Assembly: GCF_963921235.1 (NCBI RefSeq)
Contig: NC_086108.1
Span: forward strand, 40,798,001-40,862,000
Reading direction: 5' to 3'
Origin: Mobula hypostoma
Taxonomy: Eukaryota
Length of the DNA stretch: 64,000 bases
Below are positions 17,426 to 56,559 of the stretch, piece by piece. The notes beneath the pieces are model-generated. The model was not told the DNA's origin. It did no database searches and worked only from the letters and a program-made list of their open reading frames with translations. Every line of letters starts with the position of its first letter. The first letter of the stretch is position 1. The position numbers and the translations under genes were made by a program.

Positions 17426-17468
17426 AAAGCAATATCCTGTAAGAAATAATTGTACAGATTGCACAATC

Positions 17469-17805
17469 ACTCTCCTTTTTCTCCCTCTGTCCCTCTGACT
17501 ATACCCCTTGCCCATCCTCTGGGTTGCCCCCCCCACCCCTTTTCCTTCTCCCTGGGCCTCCTGTCCCATGATCCTCTCGTATCCCCTTTGCCAATCACCT
17601 GTCCAGCTCTTGGCTCCATCCCTCCCCCTCCTGTCTTCTCCTATCATTTTGGATCTCCCCCTCCCCCTCCCACTTTCAAATCTCTTACTAACTCTTCCTT
17701 CAGTTAGTCCTGATGAAGGGTCTCGGCCTGAAACGTCGACTGTACCTCTTCCTAGAGATGCTGCCTGGCCTGCTGCGTTCACCAGCAACTTTGTTGTGTG
17801 TTGGA
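17469..17805 (+). mobile_element. Young Penelope-like element pLTR (solo)
   Basis: Near-identical to the reverse complement of 31066-31350; 11-bp TSD TGTACAGATTG at 17451-17461 and 17806-17816. Confidence 0.9.
17706..17741 (+). ncRNA. Minimal type I hammerhead ribozyme (intact core)
   Basis: AGTC-CTGATGA-AGGGTCTCGGCCT-GAAA-CG-TC/GACT: stem I AGTC:GACT, stem II AGG:CCT, predicted GUC cleavage after 17737. Confidence 0.85.
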
Positions 17806-18016
17806 TGTACAGATTGTGATTCTGTTTTATGGAGTTTAATTCAATGAAAAGGGTTCTACTGAAGTACAAACATTTTTTAGATGGTCTGATAAAAAAGATT
17901 CTTCATGGAGGAATCTAGAATATGGGATTTAGCTTCCAGAAAAAGGATCAATCATTCAATACTGAGATGAGGAGAAAATTCTTCTCTAAAAAGGTTGTGG
18001 GTGGAGAGTAATGAGG

Positions 18017-18248
18017 TGTGGTAAATCATATATATATGTTGTAACTGGGTTACCTGTCTGGACGAGCCCCTCTGCTGACTGCTCCTGTGGCTCCTCCCAC
18101 AGACCCCTGAATAAAGGCGATTGTGCCACTGCTCCTCCCTCAGTCCGGGACAGATACTCAGCATGGTCGCGGACTCATCTTACTGTTAATAAAAGCCTTT
18201 CAGTATTTACTCTACTTCCAGTCTTTTGGAGTAATTGATAGTGCATCA
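18017..18248 (+). repeat. 5' LTR (232 bp)
   Basis: TGTGG...CATCA; about 17 differences from the 3' LTR by manual alignment; AATAAA at 18188-18193. Confidence 0.95.
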
Positions 18249-18273
18249 ATTTTACTAACAGTAATTTTATAAC

Positions 18274-19834
18274 ATGGAACACGTCCTGAGACCCGACAAG
18301 CTAGACCTCGACCCGCAAACGCCTGAAACCAGAAACGCTTTTGAACTCTGGCTGTCCTGCTTCGAATCATACCGAGAGGAGATTGAAGTGACCAGATCCA
18401 CCGCGAAGTGCAGAGTTCTCCTCTCCAGGGTCAGTCAATGATTAGAGACCAGTCGAGTATGGTGGCGCGATGAGCACCCTAATAAGGCAATACCTGTGGT
18501 CGATAAACACCGTCTATGCGCGACATTGCTTAGCAACGCAGCAGCAGCGGCCTGGAGCGTCGAGTGCTGAGTTTGTCTGGGCCCTACAGACACTCATGCG
18601 GGCTTGCGATTGCTGGGGGCTGAGGGCTGAACAGCATGCGGAGCTCCCAGTAAGAGATGCCTTCGTCATGGGGACTAGGTCAGTGTATGTGCGCCAGCAG
18701 CTGCTGGAACACGCCAATCTTACCTTACGTTCGGTGATTGAGCTGACCGACATGCTGGAGGCCGCTCTGCACAACTCTGATGCTCCCCAGGCACGCGATC
18801 TCCCAGTGGCCTCGTGGACGCCGCAGACCCCGCAACCCACCGGTGAATCGAGAAGCACACCTGGAAACGCTGCCCAGCCCGAGAAGCTACCCGCTCCAGC
18901 TGCGGAAAGAAAGGCCACTTCACCAAGGCCTGTAAGTCCAAACCGCAAACAGGGTCGAGCAGCGCCGCCTGCGAGGCATGGGGGTCGCTATCTTGGCCGT
19001 CGCCATCTTGCCTGCACACCGCCACCATGTGCGAGACATGGGGGCGGCCACCTTGGTCAGCGCCACATCGCACCGCCTATGACCCATGGGTGCTCACGAG
19101 GCACCCCACCGCACCAGACCAAGACAGTGGCTCAACTCTGGCCTCCGTGACCCTCGACCAAAGCGCTCCCCACCAGCTCGCAAGGTCAATGATGGACATC
19201 CTGGTGGAGGGGCGCAGGGCAAGCTGTCTGTTTGACACAGGCAGCATGGAGAGTTATATCCACCCGGACATGGTGCAGCATTGCGGACTCGTGATACGGC
19301 CGGTAAGTCAGAGGGTCGCCATGGCTTCCGGGTCGCATGCAACAGACATCCGGGGGGGGGGGGGTGGATTGTGTAGCGACGCTAGTGGTGCAGGCCACAG
19401 AATATCGGGATTTTACATTTACTGGTCTTGTCTCAACTGTGTGCCCCTGTGCTATTGGGGCTTGACTTCCAGAGCCACCTGAAAAGTGTGACAATGAAGT
19501 ATGATGGGCCCCTCCCACCAATCACTGTCGTAAGTCCTCAGTTTTGTAGGAATACGTCACATACCCCGCTACTGACCACACACACACACCGACCCGCGCA
19601 TCCCACCCAACATCATGCCAACAGCCGCACTACGGACACCACTTGCGGCCTCTCCACCCTCAGGATCCCTCCCCCACCGCTGTTCGCCAACCTGACCCCC
19701 GACTGTAAACCTGTGACAACTAAAAGCAGGAGGTACAGCGTGGGGGACAGAGCTTTCATTAAGTCGGAGGTGCAGCGGCTGCTCAGGGAGGGGGTCATTG
19801 ACGCAAGCACAAGTCCTTAGAGGGCGCAGGTGAG
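18274..19834 (+). pseudogene. gag: Frameshifted gag, aspartic protease and RT N-terminus
   Basis: ATG 18274 MEHVLRPDKLDLDP..FELWLSCF; knuckle CPAREATRSSCGKKGHFTKAC (first Cys lost); protease CLFDTGS; poly-G frameshift near 19352; TAG at 19818-19820 where Trp is expected. Confidence 0.9.
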
Positions 19835-22333
19835 GTGGTGGTTGTTCGGAACGGGGAGAAGAATAGGATGGTTGTGGACTATAGCCAGACCATCAATAGG
19901 TTCACGCAGCTTGACGCGTACCCTCTACCCCGCATCGCGGACATGGTCAATCAGATAGCACAGTACAAGGTGTACTCGACCATAGACCTAAAATCCGCTT
20001 ACCATCAGCTCCCCATCTGCCGGGAGGACCACCCTTACACTGCCTTCGAGGCGGATGGCAGGCTTTATCAATTTCTGCACGTCCCCTTTGGTGTCACGAA
20101 TGGTGTGTCTGTCTTCCAGAGGGCGATGGACCGGATGGTGAACCAGTGCCAACTGAAGGCCACGTTCCCATACCTGGATAACATCACCATCTGCGGTCAC
20201 GACCAGCAGGATCACGACAACAACCTCCAAAAATTTCTCCAAGCAGCCAAAGCTTTCAATTTCACATATAACAAGGACAAGTGTGTATTTGGGACCACCC
20301 GACTTGCTATCCTTGGGTGTGTCGTGGAGAATGGAGTCATTGGCCCTGACCCCGACCGTATGCGCCCCCTGTTGGAACTCCCTCTTCCCAACACCCTCAG
20401 AGCTCTCAAAAGGTGCCTGGGCTTCTTTTCATATTACGCCCAATGGGTCTCTAACTATGCAGACAAGGCCCGCCCCCTGGTCAAGTCCACCACATTCCCC
20501 CTCTCTGCCGAGGCCCGCGCGACCTTCAACCACATAAAAGGGGACATTGCCAAAGCAGCAATGCATGCGGTGGATGAGGCCATTCCCTTCCAAGTAGAGA
20601 GTGACGCCTCCGACTTTGCGCTGGCTGCCACCCTCAACCAGGCGGGAAGACCGGTGGCGTTCTTCTCCCGTACCCTTCAAGGCCCTGAAATTCGGCACTC
20701 TGCGGTAGAGAAAGAGGCCCAGGCTATAGTGGAAGCTATTAGGCACTGGAGGCACTATCTCGCCAGCAAAAAGTTCACCCTGCTGACTGACCGGTGCTCA
20801 GTCGCATTCATGTTTAGTAACCAACAACGGGGCAAAATCAAAAATGATAAAATTCTGAAGTGGAGAATCGAACTCTCCACCTACAACTATGACATCATGT
20901 ACAGGCCTGGGAAGCTCAACGAGCCCTCCGATGCCCTATCCCGGGGAACATGCGCCAGCGCGCAGATCGACCAGCTATTTGCCCTACATGTAGACCTTTG
21001 CCACCCGGGAGTCACCCGGCTTTTCCACTTGATGAAAGCCCGGAACCTGCCTTACTCCCTTGAGGAAATCAGGATGATGACCAGGGACTGCCAAGTCTGC
21101 GCAGAGTGCAAACCGCACTTCTACCGACCCGAAAAGGCACCACTCATCAAGGCCACCCGCCCCTTTGAGCGACTGAGTGTCGACTTTAAGGACCCCCTTC
21201 CCTCCACCGGCTGCAATGTGTACTTTCTTAACATTATCGACAAGTACTCGCAGTTCCCCTTCGCCATCCCCTGCCCTGATACCACTACCACGTCAGTTAT
21301 AAAAGCCCTGCGCAAGCTCTTCACTCTGTTCGGATACCCATGCTATATCCACAGTGACAGAGGGTCCTCGTTTATGCCTGATGAGCTGCGCCAATACCTG
21401 CCGGCTAGGGGTATCGCAACTAGTAGGACCACGAGCTATAATCCCCAGGGGAATGGACAGGTAGAGAAGGAGAATGGCACGGTGTGGAAAGCCACACTCT
21501 TAGCCCTCAGGTCAAAGGGACTGCCAGTCTCTCGCTGGCAGGAAGTCCTTCCCGAGGCACTCCACTCCATCCGCTCCCTGTTATGCACAGCCACCAATGC
21601 CACCCCTCATGAGCGGCTCTTTTCTTTTCCCAGAAAGTTGACCACTGGGACGACCCTACCAACTTGGCTGACGTCCTCGGGGCCAGTGCTGCTCCGGAAA
21701 CATGTCAGGAGCAATAAATACTCCCTGATAGTCGAGAGGGTTCACTTACTGCATGCGAACCCCCAGTATGCCTATGTGGTCTTATCTGATGGGCGGGAGG
21801 ACATGGTCTCCATCCGCGAGCTGGCTCCCGCAGGAGCACCGGGCCCCTACCCTGAACACTCCATGGTGACTATTAACCCTGTACCCACTGGTATATATAC
21901 CCACGAGACACTGCGCACTCCAAGCCCTACACAGACACCACACGACACTCCCATACCGGGCGCGACGCACACGCATGAGGGATTACCGACGCCAGGCTGG
22001 AGCCAGCATAACCACTATCGCCGGTGCAATTACCACCGGTGCTACGTAGATCACAGCGACGGACTTGACCGCCTGATAGACTTGACCTGTAAATATACTT
22101 CTTGTAAATATTGTCAGTCACTTCACCCCATGGGTCTCTTTTTAAAAAGGAGGGGTGAATGTGGTAAACCATATATATATTTTGCAACTGGGTTACCTGT
22201 CTGGACGAGCCCCTCTGTTGACTGCCCCTGTGGCTCCTCCCAAGGACCCCTGAATAAAGACGATTGTGCCATTGCTCCTCCTCTCAGTCCGGGGCAGATA
22301 CTCAGCATGGTGGAGGTCACATTTTACTGTTAA
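19835..22333 (+). CDS. pol: Open pol segment: reverse transcriptase, RNase H, integrase (3' end reads through into the LTR, probably by frameshift)
   Basis: RMVVDYS, PFGVTNG, YLDN; RNase H ESDAS..EKEAQA..LLTD; HHCC HVDLCHPG..CQVC; integrase SVDF/HSDRG/GQVEKEN. Confidence 0.92.
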   Translation: MVVVRNGEKNRMVVDYSQTINRFTQLDAYPLPRIADMVNQIAQYKVYSTIDLKSAYHQLPICREDHPYTAFEADGRLYQFLHVPFGVTNGVSVFQRAMDRMVNQCQLKATFPYLDNITICGHDQQDHDNNLQKFLQAAKAFNFTYNKDKCVFGTTRLAILGCVVENGVIGPDPDRMRPLLELPLPNTLRALKRCLGFFSYYAQWVSNYADKARPLVKSTTFPLSAEARATFNHIKGDIAKAAMHAVDEAIPFQVESDASDFALAATLNQAGRPVAFFSRTLQGPEIRHSAVEKEAQAIVEAIRHWRHYLASKKFTLLTDRCSVAFMFSNQQRGKIKNDKILKWRIELSTYNYDIMYRPGKLNEPSDALSRGTCASAQIDQLFALHVDLCHPGVTRLFHLMKARNLPYSLEEIRMMTRDCQVCAECKPHFYRPEKAPLIKATRPFERLSVDFKDPLPSTGCNVYFLNIIDKYSQFPFAIPCPDTTTTSVIKALRKLFTLFGYPCYIHSDRGSSFMPDELRQYLPARGIATSRTTSYNPQGNGQVEKENGTVWKATLLALRSKGLPVSRWQEVLPEALHSIRSLLCTATNATPHERLFSFPRKLTTGTTLPTWLTSSGPVLLRKHVRSNKYSLIVERVHLLHANPQYAYVVLSDGREDMVSIRELAPAGAPGPYPEHSMVTINPVPTGIYTHETLRTPSPTQTPHDTPIPGATHTHEGLPTPGWSQHNHYRRCNYHRCYVDHSDGLDRLIDLTCKYTSCKYCQSLHPMGLFLKRRGECGKPYIYFATGLPVWTSPSVDCPCGSSQGPLNKDDCAIAPPLSPGQILSMVEVTFYC
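22144..22159 (+). other. Polypurine tract
   Basis: AAAAAGGAGGGGTGAA immediately before the 3' LTR. Confidence 0.9.
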
Positions 22334-22392
22334 TAAAAGCCTTTCCGTATTTACTCTACTTCCAGTCTTTTGGAGTAATTGATAGTGCATCA
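22160..22392 (+). repeat. 3' LTR (233 bp)
   Basis: Direct repeat of 18017-18248. Confidence 0.95.
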
Positions 22393-22576
22393 TGAGGTAC
22401 ACTCAAGTTCGAGACAGATGGACATTTGGGAATTGAAGGGCATGGGAACAGGTAGGAAAGTGGAGCTGTGACAAAGATCAGATCAGGAGCAATATGGTCT
22501 ACTTCTGTTCCTGTTCCTTATATTGTTGAAAACTGCAATATATGTGCACAGAAGGAAAAGCAGAGTTTTTTGCATA

Positions 22577-27563: not shown

Positions 27564-30206
27564 GAAACATAGAAACATAGAAACATAGAAAATAGGTGCA
27601 TGAGTAGGCCATTCGGCCCTTCGAGCCTGCACCTCCATTCAGTATGATCATGGCTGATCATCCAACTCAGAACCCTGTACCAGCCATCCCTCCATACCCA
27701 CTGAACCCTTTAGCCACAAGGGCCATATCTAACTCCCTCTTAAATATAGCCAATGAACTGGCCTCAACTGTTTCCTGTGGCAGAGAATTCCACAGATTCA
27801 CCACTCTCTGTGTGAAGAAGTTTTTCCTCATCTTGGTAATAAAGGCTTCCCCTTTATCCTCAAACTGTGACCTCTCGTTCTGGACTTCCCCAACATCGGG
27901 AACAATCTTCCTGCATCTAGCCTGTCCAATCCCTTTAGGGTTTTATACGTTTCAATAAGATCCCCTCTCAATCTTCTAAATTCCAAGGACTATAAGCCTA
28001 GTTGATCCAGTCTTTCATCATATGAAAGTCCTGCCATCCCAGGAATCACTCTGGTGAACCTTCTTTGTACTCCCTCTATGGCAAAGATGTCTTTTCTCAG
28101 TTTAGGGGACCAAAACTGCACACAATACTCCAGGTGTGGTCTCACTAAGGCCTTGTACAACTGCAGTAGTACCTCCCTGCTCCTGTGCTCGAATCCTCTC
28201 GCTGTAAATGCCAGCATACCATTCGCCTTTTTCACCGCCTGCTGTACCTGCATGCCCACTTTCAATGACTGGTGTATAATGACACCCAGGTCTCGTTGCA
28301 CCTCCCCTTTTCCTAATCGGCCACCATTCAGATAATAATCTGTTTTTTCCTGTTTTTGCCACCAAAGTGGATAATCTCACATTTATCCACATTAAATTGC
28401 ATCTGCCATGAATTTCCCACTCACTTAACCTATCCAAGTCACCCTGCATCCTCTTAGCATCCTCCTCACAGCTAACACTACTGCCCAGCTTCATGTCATC
28501 CGCAAACTTGGAGATGCTGCATTTACTTCCCTCATCTAAGTCATTAATGTATATTGCAAACAACTGGGGTCCCAGCACTGAGCCTTGCGGTACCCCACTA
28601 GTCACTGCCTGCCATTCTGAAAAGGTCCCGTTTATCCCCGCTCTTTGCTTCCTGTCTGCCAACCAATTCTTTATCCACATCAATACCTTACCCCCAATAC
28701 CGTGTGCTTTAAGTTTACACACTAATCTCCTGTGTAGGACCTTGTCAAAAGCCTCTTGAAAATTCAAATATACCACATCCACTGGTTCTCCCCTATCCAC
28801 TCTACTAGTTACATCCTCAAAAAATTCTATGGGATTCGTCAGACATGATTTTCCTTTCACAAATCCATGCTGACTTTATCCGATGATTTCACCGCTTTCC
28901 AAATGTGCTGTTGTCACATCTTTGATAATTCACTCTAGCATTTTCCCCACCACTGAGTCAGGCTTACCGGTCTATAATTCCTCGGTTTCTCTCTCTCTCC
29001 TTTTTTAAAAAGCAGGGTTACATTAGCCACCCTCCAATCCTCAGGAACTAGTCCAGAATCTAAAAATTTTTCAGAAGTTATCACTAATGCATCCACTATT
29101 TCTTGGGCTACTTCCTTAAGCACTCTAGGATGCAGACCATCTGGCCCTGGGGATTTATCTGCCTTTAATCCCTTCAACTTACCTAACACCACTTCCCTAC
29201 TAACATGTATTTCCCTCAGTTCCTCCATCTCACTGGACCCTCTGTCCCCTACTATTTCTGGAAGATTATTTATGTCCTCCTTAGTGAAGACAGAACCAAA
29301 GTAGTTATTCAATTGGTCTGCCATGTGCTTGCTCCCCATAATCAATTCGCCTGTTTCTGTCTGTAGGGGACCTACATTTGTCTTAACCAATCTTTTTCTT
29401 TTCACATATCTATAAAAGCTTTTACAGTCAGTTTTTATGTTCCCTGCCAGTTTTCTCTCATAATCTTTTTTCCCCTTCCTAATTAAGCCCTTTGTCCTCC
29501 TCTGCTGGACTCTGAATTTCTCCTAGTCCTCAGGTGAGCCACTTTTTCTGGCTAATTTGTATGCTTCTTCTTTGGAATTGATACTATCCCTAATTTCCCT
29601 TGTCAGCCACGGGTGCACTACCTTCCTTGATTTATTCTTTTGCCAAACTGGGATGAACAATTGTTGTAGTTCATCCATGCGATCTTTAAATGCTTGCCAT
29701 TGCATATCCACTGTCAACCCTTTAAGTGTCATTTGCCAGTCTATCTTAGCTAATTCACGTCTCATACCTTCAAAGTTACCCTTCTTTAAGTTCAGAACCT
29801 TTGTTTCTGAATTAACTACGTCACTCTCCATTTTAATGAAGAATTCCACCATATTATGGTCACTCTTACCCAAGGGGCCTCTCACGACAAGATTGCTAAT
29901 TAACCCTTCCTCATTGCTCAATACCCAGTCGAGAATAGCCTGCTCTCTAGTTGGTTCCTCGACATGTTGGTTCAAAAAAACCATCCCGCATACATTCCAA
30001 GAAATCCTCTTCCTCAGCACCCTTACCAATTTGGTTCACTCAATCTACATGTAGATTGAAGTCACCCATTATAACTGCTGTTCCTTTATTGCACACATTT
30101 CTAATTTCCTGTTTAATACCATCCCCAACCTCACTACTACTGTTAGGTGGCCTGTACACAACTCCCACCAGCGTTTTCTGCCCCTTAGTGTTATGCAGCT
30201 CTACCC
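27564..30206 (-). mobile_element. CR1/HER1-type LINE, 2.6 kb, 5'-truncated, ORF2 with few frameshifts
   Basis: (GAAACATA)n tail; APE remnant IMGDFNL..LDWVL..SDHN; KSPGPDG, NYRPVSL, GVPQGSVLGP, FADD, LVRPHLEYC. Confidence 0.97.
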
Positions 30207-30690: not shown

Positions 30691-31065
30691 TATATATATA
30701 TATACTGAGGAATTCCTTGTCAATGAAAGTTGGGGAGAAATTCTATAAAGCTGCACTTTGATAACTTTAGCTTGTTGAGTAATATTGGGGAGTATAAGTT
30801 TGAAGATGTTGTCTAACTAATTCCTACTATTGTTCAAAGTGATGCCTCTGACAAGGTAAAATGACGTTGTTAATCTCAGAGATGATGCAACTCCAAAAAT
30901 TCCCACTGAATGAATGATTTCAAAACTAGCATCATGAGCACTGTTATGAAGATCACGGATTGTGCCCATTGAGTTATAAAATTTCTGAATATGTTAAAGT
31001 TGTTTATGTTCCTTTATAAAGAGAACAATAATGTAGTCAATATGATCATAATCCTGTACAATTAT

Positions 31066-31865
31066 CTCTAGGAAGAGGTACAGTCGATGTTTCAGGCCGA
31101 GACCCTTCATCAGGACTAACTGAAGGAAGAGTTAGTAAGAGATTTGAAAGTGGGAGGGGGAGGGGGAGATCCAAAATGATAGGAGAAAACAGGAGGGGGA
31201 GGGATGGAGCCAAGAGCTGGACAGGTGATTGGCAAAGGGGATATGAGAGGATCATGGGACAGGAGGCCCGGGGAGAAAGATGGGGGGGGGAACCCAGAGG
31301 ATGGGCAAGGGGTATAGTCAGAGGGACAGAGGGAGAAAAAGGAGAGTGAGAGAAAGAATGTGTGTATAAAAATAAATAACAGATGGGGTACGAGGGGGAG
31401 GTGGGGCATTAGCGGAAGTCAGAGAAGTCGCTGTTCATGCCATCAGGTTGGAGGATACACAGACGGAATATAAGATGCTGTTCCTCCAACCTGAGTGTGG
31501 CTTCATCTTTACAGTAGAGGAAGCCGTGGATAGACATGTCAGACTGGGAATGGGATGTGGAATTAAAATGTGTGGCCACTGGGAGATCCTGCTTTCTCTG
31601 GCGGACAGAGCGTAGGTGTACAGCAAAGCAGTCTCCCAGTCTGCGTCGGGTCTCGCCAATATATAGAAGGCCATATCGGGAGCACCGGACACAGTATATC
31701 ACCCCAGCCGACTCACAGGTGAAGTGTTGCCTCACCTGGAAGGACAGTCTCGGCCTGAAACGTCGACTGTACCTCTTCCTAGAGATGCTGCCTGGCCTGT
31801 TGCGTTCACCAGCAACTTTGATGTGTGTTGCTTGAATTTCCAGCATTTGCAGAATTCCTGTTGTT
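31066..31865 (-). mobile_element. Young Penelope-like element: GIY-YIG C-terminus, pLTR, and an inverted pLTR tail at 31747-31865
   Basis: HFTCESAGVIYCVRCSRYGLLYIGETRRRL..HFN..EEQHLIFRL..PDGMN (31409-31745); 14-bp TSD TCCTGTACAATTAT at 31052-31065 and 31866-31879. Confidence 0.93.
31082..31117 (-). ncRNA. Minimal type I hammerhead ribozyme (intact core, AUC site)
   Basis: Minus strand reads AGTC-CTGATGA-AGGGTCTCGGCCT-GAAA-CA-TC/GACT. Confidence 0.8.
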
Positions 31866-33500
31866 TCCTGTACAATTATTGTTCCTTTAAAGCTATCACC
31901 CCTTTAAGGAGTAGATCAAGTGCCTAATTCTTTCTAGATTGCAGTGGTATTATGTTGAAGGTTCTGAACACAGAGTCTGTGAAGGGCCCTTGAATAATCC
32001 ACATGAATGCTTTGACTGAGCTCGTAGATCATAGTACAAAGATCATACACAGTATGGGGCCTTTGGCCCACAATGATGTGCCAATCTGTACAAACCTATT
32101 CCACAATCAATCTAACCCTTCTCTGTTACATACCCATAACCCTCCTCTGTTACATACCCATAACCGTCCATTTTTCTTACAATCATGTGCCTATCTAAGA
32201 GTTTTTTTTTTAAATGTCCCTATTATATCAGCCTCTACCATCACACTTGACAAGTAGATCCAGGCACTTCCACTCTGTGTCAAAAAACAACCCATGATAT
32301 CTCCTCAGAACTTCCCTCCACTCTCCTTAATTGAATGTCCTCCATTTATCCTCTATCTTTGCCTCTCATAATCTAATACATCTCTATCAAATTGCCTCTC
32401 ATCCTGCGCATCTCCAAAGAGAATAGCCCTAGGCTGCACATCCTTTCCTCATAAGACATGTTCTCTAAACCTGGCAGCATCCTGGTTAATCTCCCTTGTA
32501 CCTTCCCTAAAGCTTCCCCTTCCTTCTTATAGTGAGGTGACTGGAACTGAACACAATACTCCAAATGGTGGTCTAAACAGAGTTTTTCAGAGCTGCAACA
32601 TTACCTCATACTCTTGAACCTGTGCCTATATTTAATGTGCTTATGAATTCAATCCTTTGACTAATAAAGGCTAGTACACCATACACCTTCTTATCCACCC
32701 TATCACTGCAACTTTGAGGGGGTCTATGGTCTTAGACCTCTAGATCCCCCTCTCTCTATATATACTGCTAAGAATCCTGTAATTAACTTTGTACTCCTCC
32801 TTCACGATCGTCCTTCCAAAGTGAACCACTTCACACGTTTCCAGATTGAACTCCAGCTGCCACTTCTCTCCCCAACTCTGCATCCTGCCTATATACCATT
32901 GTAAACTTTAACAACCTTCTACACCACCCACAACTCCAACCTTCATGTCATGCTGCAGACTTGCTAACCCACCCCTCCACTTTCTCATTCAAGTCATTTG
33001 TAACAATTACAAAGAGCAGAGGTCTCAGAACAGATCCCTGATCACTGAGCAGGCAGAATACACACCATCTACTACAACCCTCTGCCTTTGTGAGCAAACT
33101 AAACCAAGTGTACACTGCCACGTTTCCACGGATTCCATGCTTCATGACTTTCTGGATGATCCCACCAAAGAGAACCTTGTCAAATGCCTTATTAAACTCC
33201 ATGTGCACCCATCCACTGCTGTTTTGTCACCTCCCTGAAAAACTCAGTTAGGCTTGTGATGCATAAACATACCTGTCACAAAAACATGCTGACTATACCT
33301 AATAAGATTACACTTCAACAAATGCAAATATATCCTGTTCCTGAGAATTCTGTCCAAAAGATTATTCCTATCACCTTTTTGAACAATAGAACAATATTTT
33401 CCATCCTTCCTTCAATCCTGAGGTATCACTCCTACTTGTCAACACTCCAACAATCCTTTCCCTCACTTCCAAAAGTAATCTGTCTGGCCCTGGGTACTTA

Positions 33501-34684: not shown

Positions 34685-35365
34685 TTATATTAGATTATGA
34701 GGACATGCAGTCCTCTTTTATTGTCATTTAGTAATGCATGCATTAAGAAATGATACAATGTTCCTCCAAAATGATATCACAGAAACACAAGACAAACCAA
34801 CACTACAAAAACTGACAAAAACCACATAATTATAACATATAGTTACAACAGTGCAAAGCAATACCGTAATTTGATAAAGAACAGACCATGGGCATGGTAA
34901 AAAAAAGTCTCAAAGTCTCTCGAAGGTCCCATCATCTCACGCAGACGGTAGAAGGAAGAGAAACTCTCTTTCTGCCATGAACCTCCAGCGCCGCAAACTT
35001 GCCGATGCAGCACCCTGGAAGCACCTGACCACAGCTGACTCTTGAGTCCATCCGAAAACCTCAAGCCTCCGACCAGCCCTCCGACACCAAGCACTAAGCA
35101 CCATCTCTGCCGAGCGCTTTGACCCCGGCCCTGGCAGCAGGCAATAGGCAAACCCAAGGATTCGGGCCTTCCCCTCCGGAGATTCTCACTCGCACAGTAG
35201 CAATGGCAGCGAAGCAGGCATTTCAGAAGTTTCTCCAGATGTTCCTCTGTGCTTCTTACGTCTGTCTCCATCAAATCAGGATTGTGCACAGCTCCTACTT
35301 AACAAGTACAATATCATTTTGGAGCAGCTGCATGCGCTGCGTCGCGTCGCCATCTTCTCCTCCCC
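34685..35365 (-). mobile_element. Non-autonomous ~690-bp retroposon, copy 1
   Basis: Reverse-complement homolog of 39511-40211; 3' stem-loop GAGGAC-5nt-GTCCTC and TAATC tail. Confidence 0.85.
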
Positions 35366-39510: not shown

Positions 39511-40211
39511 GGGAGGAGAAGATGGCGGCGCGACGCAGCTCGCAGCGGCCACTCCGGTGGTGATGTCTGTTACTTGTCAAGTAGGGTGCCGTGCACAATC
39601 CTGATTTGATGGAGACGGATGTGAAAGTACGGAGGAACATCTGGTGAAACTTCTGAAATGCCTGCTTTGTTGCTGCTGCTACTGTGTGGTCCAGAATCTC
39701 CGGAGGAGAAGGCCCCGAGTCCTCGACTTTGCTTGTTGCTCGGCGGCCAGAGTGGGGTCGAAGCTCTCGGCAGAGGATGGTGCTCGGAGAGGCTGTGTCA
39801 GAGGGGCTGGTCGGAGGCTCGAAGTTTTCGGACGGACTCAGAGTCGGCTGCGGTCGGGTGCTTTCAATGGTGCTGCATTGGCAAGTTTGCAGCACTTGGA
39901 GGTTCATGGCAGGGAGAGTTTCTCCCTTCTGCCGCCTGCGTGAGATGATGAGGCTATTGGGACTGAGACTTTATTTTACCGTGCCCATGGTCTGCTCTTT
40001 ATCAAATTATGGTATTACTTTGCACTGTTGTAACTATATGTTATAATTATGTGGTTTTGTCCGTTTTAGTCTTGGTTTGTCCTGTGTTTTCTTGTGATAT
40101 CATTCTGGGGGAAAGTTGTATCATTTTTTAATGCATGCATTTCTAAATGACAGTAAACGAGGCCTGAGTGTCCTCACAATCTAATCTAATCTAGTCTAAT
40201 CTAATCTAATA
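39511..40211 (+). mobile_element. Non-autonomous ~700-bp retroposon, copy 2
   Basis: Starts GGGAGGAGAAGATGGCGGCG, CpG-rich body, ends in a stem-loop plus (TAATC)n at 40177-40211. Confidence 0.85.
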
Positions 40212-54051: not shown

Positions 54052-55035
54052 TGTCACAAGTGCAGAGCACGGGTGGACCCAAATGCAGGACACAAACACG
54101 CTTTGCAGCATTAACAAAAATAGAGTTTATTAATAGTTACTAGGAAAGCAGGGAAGCAAGGATTGTACAGAGAGACATCAAGAATGAATGAAACAGAAGA
54201 GTGAATATGCGTGGCTGGAGTTGGGCTCAGACCCTGGATTTAGACTGAGACTCAGGGGCTGAGCTTGGCATGGGACTCGGGACCTGGACTTGGACTTGGA
54301 TTGGAACTTGGGACTTGGAACATTGGAGCCTGGACTTGGAACTCGGAATATTGGAACGCAGAGCCGGGACTCTTCCTTGTATACAGGACACAGAGTCGGG
54401 ACTCTTCCTTGGATACAGGACACAGAGTCGGGACTCTTCCTTGGACACAGGACACAGAAAACAGAACACGAAGAGACAGTTCCCCACCCAGGGTAGTGGC
54501 AAACAGCTGGACCTACCGAGCGGAGGAGAGGACACGGAGAGACAAAACCATACAATGATAGACAGTTCTTTATCTTGACACGAAATGGCTCCAAGTAGTG
54601 GCAAGCCCTCAAGGTGGCCCAGGAACTACAGACAGCGGCTCTAGCCTCACTCTGGCAGGTTAACTTGATGGACCCACTCTGGCGAGGTAGCTTAGTGGCT
54701 CGCTCAGGCGCGGTAACTTCACAGGCTGGCTCTGGTGAGGAGAGGCGACTTACTGGCACTGGCTTCGGGGAGAAGATTTGACTTGCTCCGGCAATGTGAC
54801 TTGCTCACACTTACTTCGGTAACATGAGGCGACGTTGGCTGATGGTCTAGCACCGAGTAGCTGAAAGCCAACACTATATACTGCCCTTTCAGCTGAGAAT
54901 CAAGTGCCTTTAATTACAGAGCCCAAGAAACACGGGGAAACAATGAATTAAAGGAAAACAAGGAGTCAATGGTCCTGATCGTGACACAAAGGGAATTTAA
55001 AGAGAACCAGGGAATAAATGATTGGGACCGTGATA
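54052..55035 (-). repeat. 3' LTR with three copies of a 32-bp unit (54359-54454) and GGACTT hexamer arrays
   Basis: Direct repeat of 55340-56395; unit cagagtcgggactcttccttggatacaggaca. Confidence 0.9.
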
Positions 55036-55326
55036 GTACCTCCCATCACCCCAATGGGAGCCTCCCGGCGATCTAATAGATTTGCCCGCATTATCGACAA
55101 CCTGACTGGGTGGAGGGGGTTTTGGCTGGCAGGCAATACGGGCTAAAAACACACTGAACTTCTGTAACTGTCGTCGTAATTGCACAATTTTTTTCTAAAC
55201 TGTTACCTGGGAACTTCGAGTCACTTTCTTGAATTCTATAAGTTACACTCTGGGTGGGATTCCAGTAAGGGATTCTGGCTTACAAGAGTTTGGAAAACGG
55301 TGTTTGCATCTGCTGGGTCCATATTT

Positions 55327-55337
55327 GGCTAGACCGT
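55327..55337 (-). other. Self-priming primer-binding site
   Basis: Minus-strand ACGGTCTAGCC, 2 nt from the LTR edge, is exactly complementary to LTR sequence at 56211-56201. Confidence 0.85.
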
Positions 55338-55339
55338 TC

Positions 55340-56395
55340 TGTCACAAGTGCGGAGCATGGGTGAACCCAGATGCAGGACACAAACACGTTTTGTAGCGTT
55401 AACAGAAATAATGTTTATTATTAGTTACTAGGAAAGTAGGGAAGCAAGGATTGTACAGAGAGACATCAAGGAGTGAATGAAGCGGAAGCAGGAATATGCG
55501 CGGCTGGAGTTGGGCTCGGACCCTGGACTTAGGCTGGGACTCAGGGCCTAGGCTTGGCCTGGGAACTCGGGAACTGGACTTGGACTTGGTCTTGGCCTGG
55601 GAACTTGGAACTTGAGACCTGAACTTGGATTTAGGCTTGGCCTGGGAATGCGGGACCCGGACTTGGACTTGGGCTTGGCCTGGGAACTGGGGACCCGGAC
55701 TTGGACTTGGATTAGAACTTGGAACTCGAAACATTGGAGCCTGGACTTGGAACTTGGAACATTGGAACACAGAGCCGGAACTCTTCTTGGACACAGGACA
55801 CAGAGCACAGAACACGAAGATACAGTTCCACACTGAGGGTAGTGGCAAACAGCCAGACCTACCGAGCGGAGGAGAGGACACGGAGAGACAAAACTACACA
55901 ATGATAGACAGTTCTTTATCTTGACACAAAATGGCTCCAAGTAGTGACAAGCCCTCGACGAGGCCCGGAAACTACAGACAGCGGCTCTAACCTCACTCCG
56001 GTGGGTTAACTTGACGGACCCGCTCCGGCGAGGTAGCTTAGCGGCTCGCTCAGGCGAGGTAACTTCACAGGCTGGCTCTGTTGAGGGGAGGCGACTTACT
56101 GGCACTCACTTCGGGGAGAAGACTTGACTTGCTCCGGCGATGTGACTTGGCTCGCTCCGGCAAGATGACTTGCTCGTACTTGCTTCGGTGATGTGAGGTG
56201 ACGGTCTAGCCCCAGGCAGCTGTAAGCCCGACACTATATACTGACCGTTCAGCTGAGAATCAAGTGCCTTTAATTACAGAGCCCAAGAAACACAGGGAAA
56301 CAATGAATTAAAGGAAAACAAGGAGTCAATGGTCCCGATAGTGACACAAAGGAAATTTGAAGGAAACCAGGCAATAACCAATCGGAACCGTGACA
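55340..56395 (-). repeat. 5' LTR with an expanded GGACTT/GGCCTG array and a TATA box at 56240-56235
   Basis: Direct repeat of 54052-55035. Confidence 0.9.
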
Positions 56396-56559
56396 GTTAG
56401 ATCCTCAGAGACCTTGGTAGCCAGGAACTTGAAACTGCTCTCTTTCCACTTCTGATCCCTCTATGGGGATTGGTTCATGTTCCCTTGTCATCGGTCTCTG
56501 AAGTCCACAGTCAGCTCTTTGGTCTCATTGACATTGAGTGCCAGACCATAGCCCTCCAT

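Follow-up and report, generated by a model that had tools for sequence, protein, structure and literature searches.

The window, by which we mean the whole 64,000-nt stretch of Mobula hypostoma DNA analyzed here, contains a decayed Ty3/gypsy element at positions 18017-22392. Its 5′ long terminal repeat (LTR; 18017-18248, + strand), which begins with TG and ends with CA, and its 3′ LTR (22160-22392, +) agree at 216 of 232 aligned letters, and the target-site duplication TGAGG (5 nt) is readable in the flanking sequence at 18012-18016 and 22393-22397. The gag and protease region (18274-19861, +; gag ATG at 18274) is interrupted by stops and frameshifts and is followed by reverse transcriptase (RT), RNase H (RH), and the integrase core (19862-21445, +), with no chromodomain match, and by a polypurine tract (22144-22159, +). 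The TG...CA LTRs, the target duplication, the polypurine tract, and the order of the protease, RT, RNase H, and integrase matches identify the element as Ty3/gypsy. Elsewhere in the window, broken frames, putatively LINE-type RT and GIY-YIG-like, lie at 28102-30035 (−) and 31409-31903 (−). The interval 54052-56397 holds a tandem duplication, GC-rich and about 1.3 kb in size, that contains 38-nt repeats, and interspersed repeats form inverted pairs (34685-35254 with 39625-40189, and 17467-17803 with 31064-31349).

Pairing of the 5′ LTR with the sequence that follows it

The CA at the end of the 5′ LTR is followed by a one-base spacer (A, 18249, +) and then by the 15-mer at 18250-18264 (+), with no primer-binding site (PBS) starting with TGG. 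As the first-pass annotation had claimed, this 15-mer is complementary at 14 of 15 positions to an arm in the element's own LTR (18180-18194, +) that includes AATAAA at 18188-18193. A second copy of the arm lies in the 3′ LTR (22324-22338), and its partner is indeed missing downstream of that LTR in the window copy. None of 20000 shuffled LTRs reached 14/15 pairing, and the stem region of the window folds with a z score of −2.7. The TGG within the gag start codon was rejected as a primer site because it is 25 nt from the LTR end.

A DNA search returned 1833 candidate copies in the genome. In the copies listed, which represent 17 of 30 loci, no TGG adjoins the LTR, and position 18255 is T in all 16 copies other than that of the window. 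Thus, the mismatch at 18255 is private to the window copy and is attributed to its decay; sister copies pair fully along the stem. Deletion of a tRNA site in the window copy only was also rejected, since the family is without such a site and the genome holds 716 exact U5-spacer-TTTTATT junctions. Chance pairing of AT-rich sequences was rejected by nulls based on shuffled LTRs, on other families, and on distant loci.

The pairing also covaries. At one stem pair, the arm/site alleles of copies that are otherwise stem-perfect are T-A in 51, C-G in 43, C-A in 5, and T-G in 9, an association with a Fisher p of 1e-15, or of 2e-9 in the worst case, which takes as mismatched all 14 of the 114 rows that were unlisted. 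Copies selected by their gag revealed further subfamilies in which arm and site changed together at up to four positions. When 78 parsed copies out of 90 chosen by gag similarity, not by the stem, were permuted (three misparsed or rearranged rows being kept among the 78), columns −15, −11, −9, and −8 matched 66, 72, 62, and 60 times, compared with 49.0, 53.6, 55.0, and 51.9 after permutation. Part of this within-family covariation is shared descent. Mosaic copies between subfamilies, examined for the position of strand transfer, were mostly graded intermediates.

The stem in distant relatives and the placement of the clade

The nearest named homologues are found in rays and sharks (76-93%), and the next in invertebrates, for example, sea anemone, nematodes, and damselfly; no relatives were found among viral contigs. 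Contigs L031-L039 are animal retrotransposon sequences within bacterial metagenome-assembled genomes (contamination). We collected 89 distant loci from genome and metagenome contigs, and the 53 with a gag start and at least 80 nt upstream were used, 36 being dropped. A stem (score at least 9) placed one base after a CA was present in 48 of these 53 loci and in 2 of 265 shuffles, and a stem search without positional constraint recovered the same one-base register in most distant loci. Among the five misses, L092 retains the stem and has a decayed CA, L121 has a decayed stem, L080 is rearranged, and L084 and L127 are short contig ends with no recognizable LTR.

We then compared 31 sequence families, namely, 29 distant ones (49-69% RT-RH identity) and 2 of this genome; these were admitted by stem score, so that the fair test of the stem remains 48/53 against the 2/265 null. 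Positions 1-13 are paired in 28-31 of the 31 families, position 14 in 23, and positions 15-16 in 16-17; farther along, the number drops to 6-9. The base opposite the spacer is never paired. Positions 5-13 are each formed by three or four pair types, and the perfect run of a primer site with its own LTR averages 13.3 nt, compared with 4.8 nt against the LTRs of other families. No TGG occurs within 12 nt of the LTR end in any of the 31 families; TGG sites are present in Mag-like and Gmr1-like families of this genome. Thus, on the two points by which the first-pass annotation had left its proposal to be judged, no tRNA site was found in the family, and the pairing is conserved and covaries both within it and across the 31 families. 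Several loci showed individual features. L119 carries the primer site and the U5 end in tandem, twice, upstream of gag, and L097 and L132 repeat an 18-nt sequence adjoining the primer site in the LTR upstream of the arm. L192, L193, L195, L202, and L203 have tRNA-type TGG sites 6-7 nt past the LTR end, a spacer above the usual length, and L196 and L197 belong to a Gypsy family that encodes a SCAN domain and has its integrase ahead of RT, the Gmr1-like order.

In quick RT-RH trees (47 rows, L038 and L210 being excluded because of insufficient length), the relatives form one clade with support of 100 and a stem length of about 1 change per site, apart from the sushi-type, Mag-like, and Gmr1-like elements of this genome. 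The branch separating the clade from sushi has support of 92 and 87, and by the AU test (p = 0.068) a sister relationship to sushi is not rejected, both in quick trees with long branches and local outgroups only; the clade joins the local Mag-like family via long branches only. In full-length homologues, gag and pol form a compact protein in a single frame; a double zinc knuckle is present in 58 of 68, and the protease flap reads VxMA(S/T). No chromodomain (PF00385) was present among the precomputed domains of the 120 homologues listed, in any of the six full-length homologues scanned, or in the window; the local sushi-type controls contain a chromodomain in 2/4 and an SH3 domain in 4/4. The gag had been called Mag-like in the first-pass annotation, and its double zinc knuckle bears this out, but the protease flap differs from those of the named Mag lineages. 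The double knuckle, the VxMA(S/T) flap, and the lack of a chromodomain fit neither the V-clade nor the Mag rows in the available part of a marker table (PMC2774666). Identity with the Mag C-clade was rejected, as the C-clade is SURL. The clade may be one of the MolGy clades, and motif searches of the literature found no name for it.

Self-complementary primer sites are familiar from Tf1/Tf2 of Schizosaccharomyces pombe, Tj1, and the Tf1/sushi chromoviruses, in which the site is likewise complementary to the element's own LTR and a tRNA is not used. In the text available from the sources consulted, gypsy self-priming is tied to Tf1/sushi, with the TAR copia elements added by prediction (PMC3601003, PMC6317226, PMC6934838, PMC10085805, PMC3587641, PMC8220671; likewise PMC4600332, PMC2864245, PMC6238403, PMC2774666, PMC3286476). 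The clade also resembles Tf1/sushi in having extra helices beside the primer duplex, as far as the latter are described in the available sections of PMC10085805 and PMC4600332. It differs from Tf1/sushi in that a chromodomain and a Tf2-type SH3 domain are absent, the stem is longer (mostly 13-16 bp), the arm usually ends in a poly(A) hexamer, the loop is 24-69 nt instead of about 175 nt as in the local sushi-type family, and the second helix is inside the loop and not formed with sequence 3′ of the primer site. Moreover, the V-clade has one CCHC array and a GVNG-type flap, whereas the clade has two zinc knuckles and VxMA(S/T) (PMC2774666, in the part available). By its domain markers, the clade, which would work like Tf1, falls outside the Tf1/sushi group.

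The Mag cluster (A-clade: Mag, DRM, SPM, CFG1, Hydra2-1) and Cigr-1 share with the clade two CCHC arrays, the ILG motif, integrase after RNase H, and the lack of a chromodomain (PMC2774666, as far as available), as well as short LTRs and a 5-nt target duplication. However, the flaps listed there for the Mag cluster are TITG/GFDG/TANG/GDDS, and Culex Mag elements have tRNA-Leu, -Ser, or -Arg sites according to the accessible text of PMC3286476, whereas 0 of the 31 families have TGG. The local Mag-like family also has a TGG site, unlike the clade, and shares with it about 29% RT-RH identity across a long separate branch. Self-priming outside the chromoviruses has likewise been predicted from sequence for TAR/Houba/Osr-1 (PMC6317226, in the portion available), but these are Ty1/copia elements of plants with a pol unrelated to that of the clade.

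Candidate priming mechanism and primer length

The best reading, and in our judgment a probable one, is that the 15-mer downstream of the 5′ LTR is a primer-binding site and that the element primes itself in a Tf1-like manner with a longer piece of its own RNA. The post-LTR site would pair with the arm inside the LTR of the same RNA, and the RNA would be cut at the 3′ end of the arm (18194/18195, +), releasing the primer. By analogy with Tf1, the cutting enzyme may be the element's RNase H, and a primer freed by an RNase H-dependent cut has indirect support from the junction positions described below. Taking the parts separately, it is very probable that this Gypsy lineage self-primes its reverse transcription. 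If it does, a cut in the 5′ copy is nearly as probable, and if both hold, a long primer in the ray family is fairly probable.

The first-pass annotation had proposed two functions for the stem, tRNA-independent priming and masking of the poly(A) signal. AATAAA or ATTAAA stands at the arm end in 20 of the 31 families, and the partner exists solely after the 5′ LTR. Both observations would also be expected if the stem merely masked the 5′ poly(A) signal or tuned gag translation and some host RNA or tRNA fragment served as the primer. Concealment of AAUAAA by base pairing near the 5′ end is known from the HIV-1 polyA hairpin, but that hairpin is inside R and hence at both ends, whereas the partner in the present element is the primer site, found at the 5′ end only. 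However, 11 of the 31 families hold the stem with no hexamer in it, and in 3 of these the hexamer is free in the loop, so that masking alone cannot explain the stem. In addition, the register to the LTR end is constant to one base, which a primer must fix and masking does not need. A matching host RNA would be required for each of 31 different AT-rich sites. When the primer site was compared with tRNA-Lys(TTT) genes (9 distinct genes, the sole tRNA type compared), the longest match was 3-4 nt; arm variants share 9 nt with what we take to be the Ser/Asn anticodon loop, which is shorter than the self-match. Masking with a host primer is thus highly improbable, and tRNA-independent priming is the better supported of the two functions. 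Under self-priming, concealment of the 5′ AAUAAA may be a side effect in the ray family, one that would bring a side benefit.

The loop (18195-18244, +) begins with GCC, from which a second helix is predicted to start at the cut. The corresponding R-C-C directly 3′ of the arm is conserved in 30, 28, and 28 of the 31 families at its three positions and is predicted to be paired within the loop in 25 of 31, compared with 6.7 (maximum 12) in 50 loop shuffles. In L032, the second helix is flipped on both sides and fully compensatory. This helix, which may mark the cut position, recalls the multi-duplex leader required by Tf1 as described in the available text of PMC10085805.

The length of the primer depends on the transcription start. 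A TATA-like box, GAATAAAG in the window (18109-18116, +) and TATAAAG in other copies, and an initiator-like TCAGTC (18140-18145, +) are present where the first-pass annotation had placed them. The predicted start, A 18142, follows from motif spacing and lies 38 nt upstream of the paired segment, in agreement with the approximate distance given there. Of 109 parsed copies, 79 yielded both a box of the TATAAAG or GAATAAAG type and a TCAGT-type initiator; in all 79, the spacing from the box to the initiator A is 31-34 nt, and in 77 this A lies 49-54 nt before the arm end and predicted cut. Across the ray family, the predicted start is 36-39 nt upstream of the paired segment. In the window, the motifs at 18109 and 18142 thus predict a capped primer fragment of 53 nt (18142-18194, +), with an unpaired leader of 38 nt and only the last 15 nt paired. 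The Tf1 primer is the 5′ end of its RNA in the available text of PMC10085805 and PMC4600332. It is 11 nt long in this yeast element, and the sushi-type family of this genome (L210-L216) has an 11-nt self-complement with a TATA-like box that precedes the arm by 31 nt (6 LTR copies, 5/7 loci), which predicts a start at the arm. Because the box positions of the ray family differ from those of this control, with the start predicted upstream of the arm, the ray family is predicted to be unlike Tf1 in this respect. In contigs from four runs, no transcript start or end was visible.

Primer length might instead follow plain Tf1-type priming, with a start that coincides with the arm's first base or lies close to it, a primer of 11-19 nt, and the upstream TATA and initiator belonging to another transcript or to none. 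The pairing profile would follow if the primer's length determined that of the site, since pairing drops from 28/31 at position 13 to a background of 6-9/31 past position 16. A and G at −11/−10 in 21 and 26 of the 31 families resemble an initiator, and the YYAGT-like pattern that many families show at −13 to −9 might itself mark a start. L097 is arranged as in Tf1, its TATA-like motif preceding the arm by about 30 nt, and most distant families have no TATA or initiator at a fixed distance; the long primer is therefore perhaps not clade-wide. The need to stop plus-strand copying after about 15 nt, which the long primer leaves unexplained, also weighs against it. However, the ray family has no TATA 30 nt ahead of the arm, a canonically spaced box and initiator occur in all subfamilies 36-39 nt further upstream, and a start at −11 fails to account for the conserved pairs 12-14. 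For these reasons, a short primer of the Tf1 type appears unlikely. On the main reading, first-strand transfer would use the stretch of roughly 20-30 nt that separates the cut from the poly(A) site.

Junctions at the predicted cut in aberrant copies

The predicted cut, between the arm and the U5-side sequence (18194/18195, +), is a junction hot spot in aberrant copies. The possible fossil INTERMEDIATES comprises integrated aberrant products that carry arm-T-inverted U5 junctions, U5 stopping at the cut, or both; L312, L315, L319, L327, L331, and L332 are such units with intact 5-nt target duplications. L312 (G000:C63:17926000-17935500, 5-nt duplication on its flanks) starts with the LTR up to the arm end, a T, and inverted U5 reaching the cut, from which it jumps into pol; the rest is a shortened element, each of whose repeats is a fusion of pol to U5 at the cut. 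In L315, a terminal inverted gag-site-U5 segment folds back at the cut, and the target duplication is present. A search pattern for U5 without a preceding arm gave 14 matches, of which 9 are true junctions at the cut: 7 fold-back joints representing three or more subfamilies and 2 joints to foreign DNA, with 5 local changes making up the remainder. The U3 control pattern gave 37 matches with no joint in the 30 examined (p 3e-6), and an earlier, stricter pattern gave 2 matches, both local changes. Four of the seven fold-back units have intact duplications, and three are truncated or unresolved. A survey covered 196 LTR ends and turned up 7 joints to internal sequence, of which 4 fell in the interval from −6 to +4 around the cut; the predicted cap had none. 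With the lead case and one picked case removed, 2 of the 5 junctions in this unselected survey are at the cut (p 0.02). In L326, host DNA contains a lone U5 piece that starts at the predicted cut and stops 3 nt short of the LTR end. A captured strong-stop cDNA should span this interval, although L326 is a single case and the pattern selects its 5′ end.

Clustering of junctions at the stem end is as expected if the first cDNA ends there, and the junctions fit, short of proof, a minus strand ending at the cut and a covalent arm-T-U5 joint. The six units with intact duplications are possible fossils of reverse-transcription intermediates. Seven of the nine junction matches use one AAAAG/CTTTT microhomology, and template switching during host DNA replication at an inverted repeat could have made some junctions. 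The same units bear on which arm copy provides the primer. As the arm occurs at both RNA ends, the copy near the 3′ end might serve, with a circularized genome, a cut after AAUAAA, and cDNA growing from the 3′ end; L312 and L327, in which U3-leader-arm is fused directly to inverted U5, could be read in this way. However, identical products arise via switching onto the 5′ primer, and the minus DNA of L312, L315, and L222 stops at the cut of the 5′ copy, which is not what an intact 5′ end would produce. With its loop of 24-69 nt, the local hairpin should also form first. A 3′-end primer is therefore very unlikely, and we retain the cut in the 5′ copy.

We conclude that the stem is real and clade-wide and that self-priming is its most likely function. 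The fullest version combines independent evolution of self-priming in a widespread non-chromovirus animal Gypsy clade with a set of features in rays, namely, a capped primer of about 53 nt, a two-helix cut, a hairpin that hides AAUAAA, and fossils that keep the primer-cDNA joint and the strong-stop end. That all of these hold together is a tentative proposal, with the balance somewhat against it. We found no publication on self-priming in such a clade; prior mention in primary Tf1 papers, Butler 2001, Repbase, or GyDB is possible. The long capped primer and the cut position, both predicted, are testable additions made here. Gypsy self-priming has so far been taken as a hallmark of the Tf1/sushi chromoviruses, and if another large animal lineage lacks a tRNA site, views on how often tRNA priming was lost or gained would change. 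If true, the long unpaired capped tail of the primer is a priming geometry not described for Tf1, and the junctions of aberrant copies offer a purely genomic route to mapping the first cDNA end. A self-priming clade would also explain why PBS-based annotation misses such elements, and it predicts that they evade silencing by tRNA 3′ fragments.
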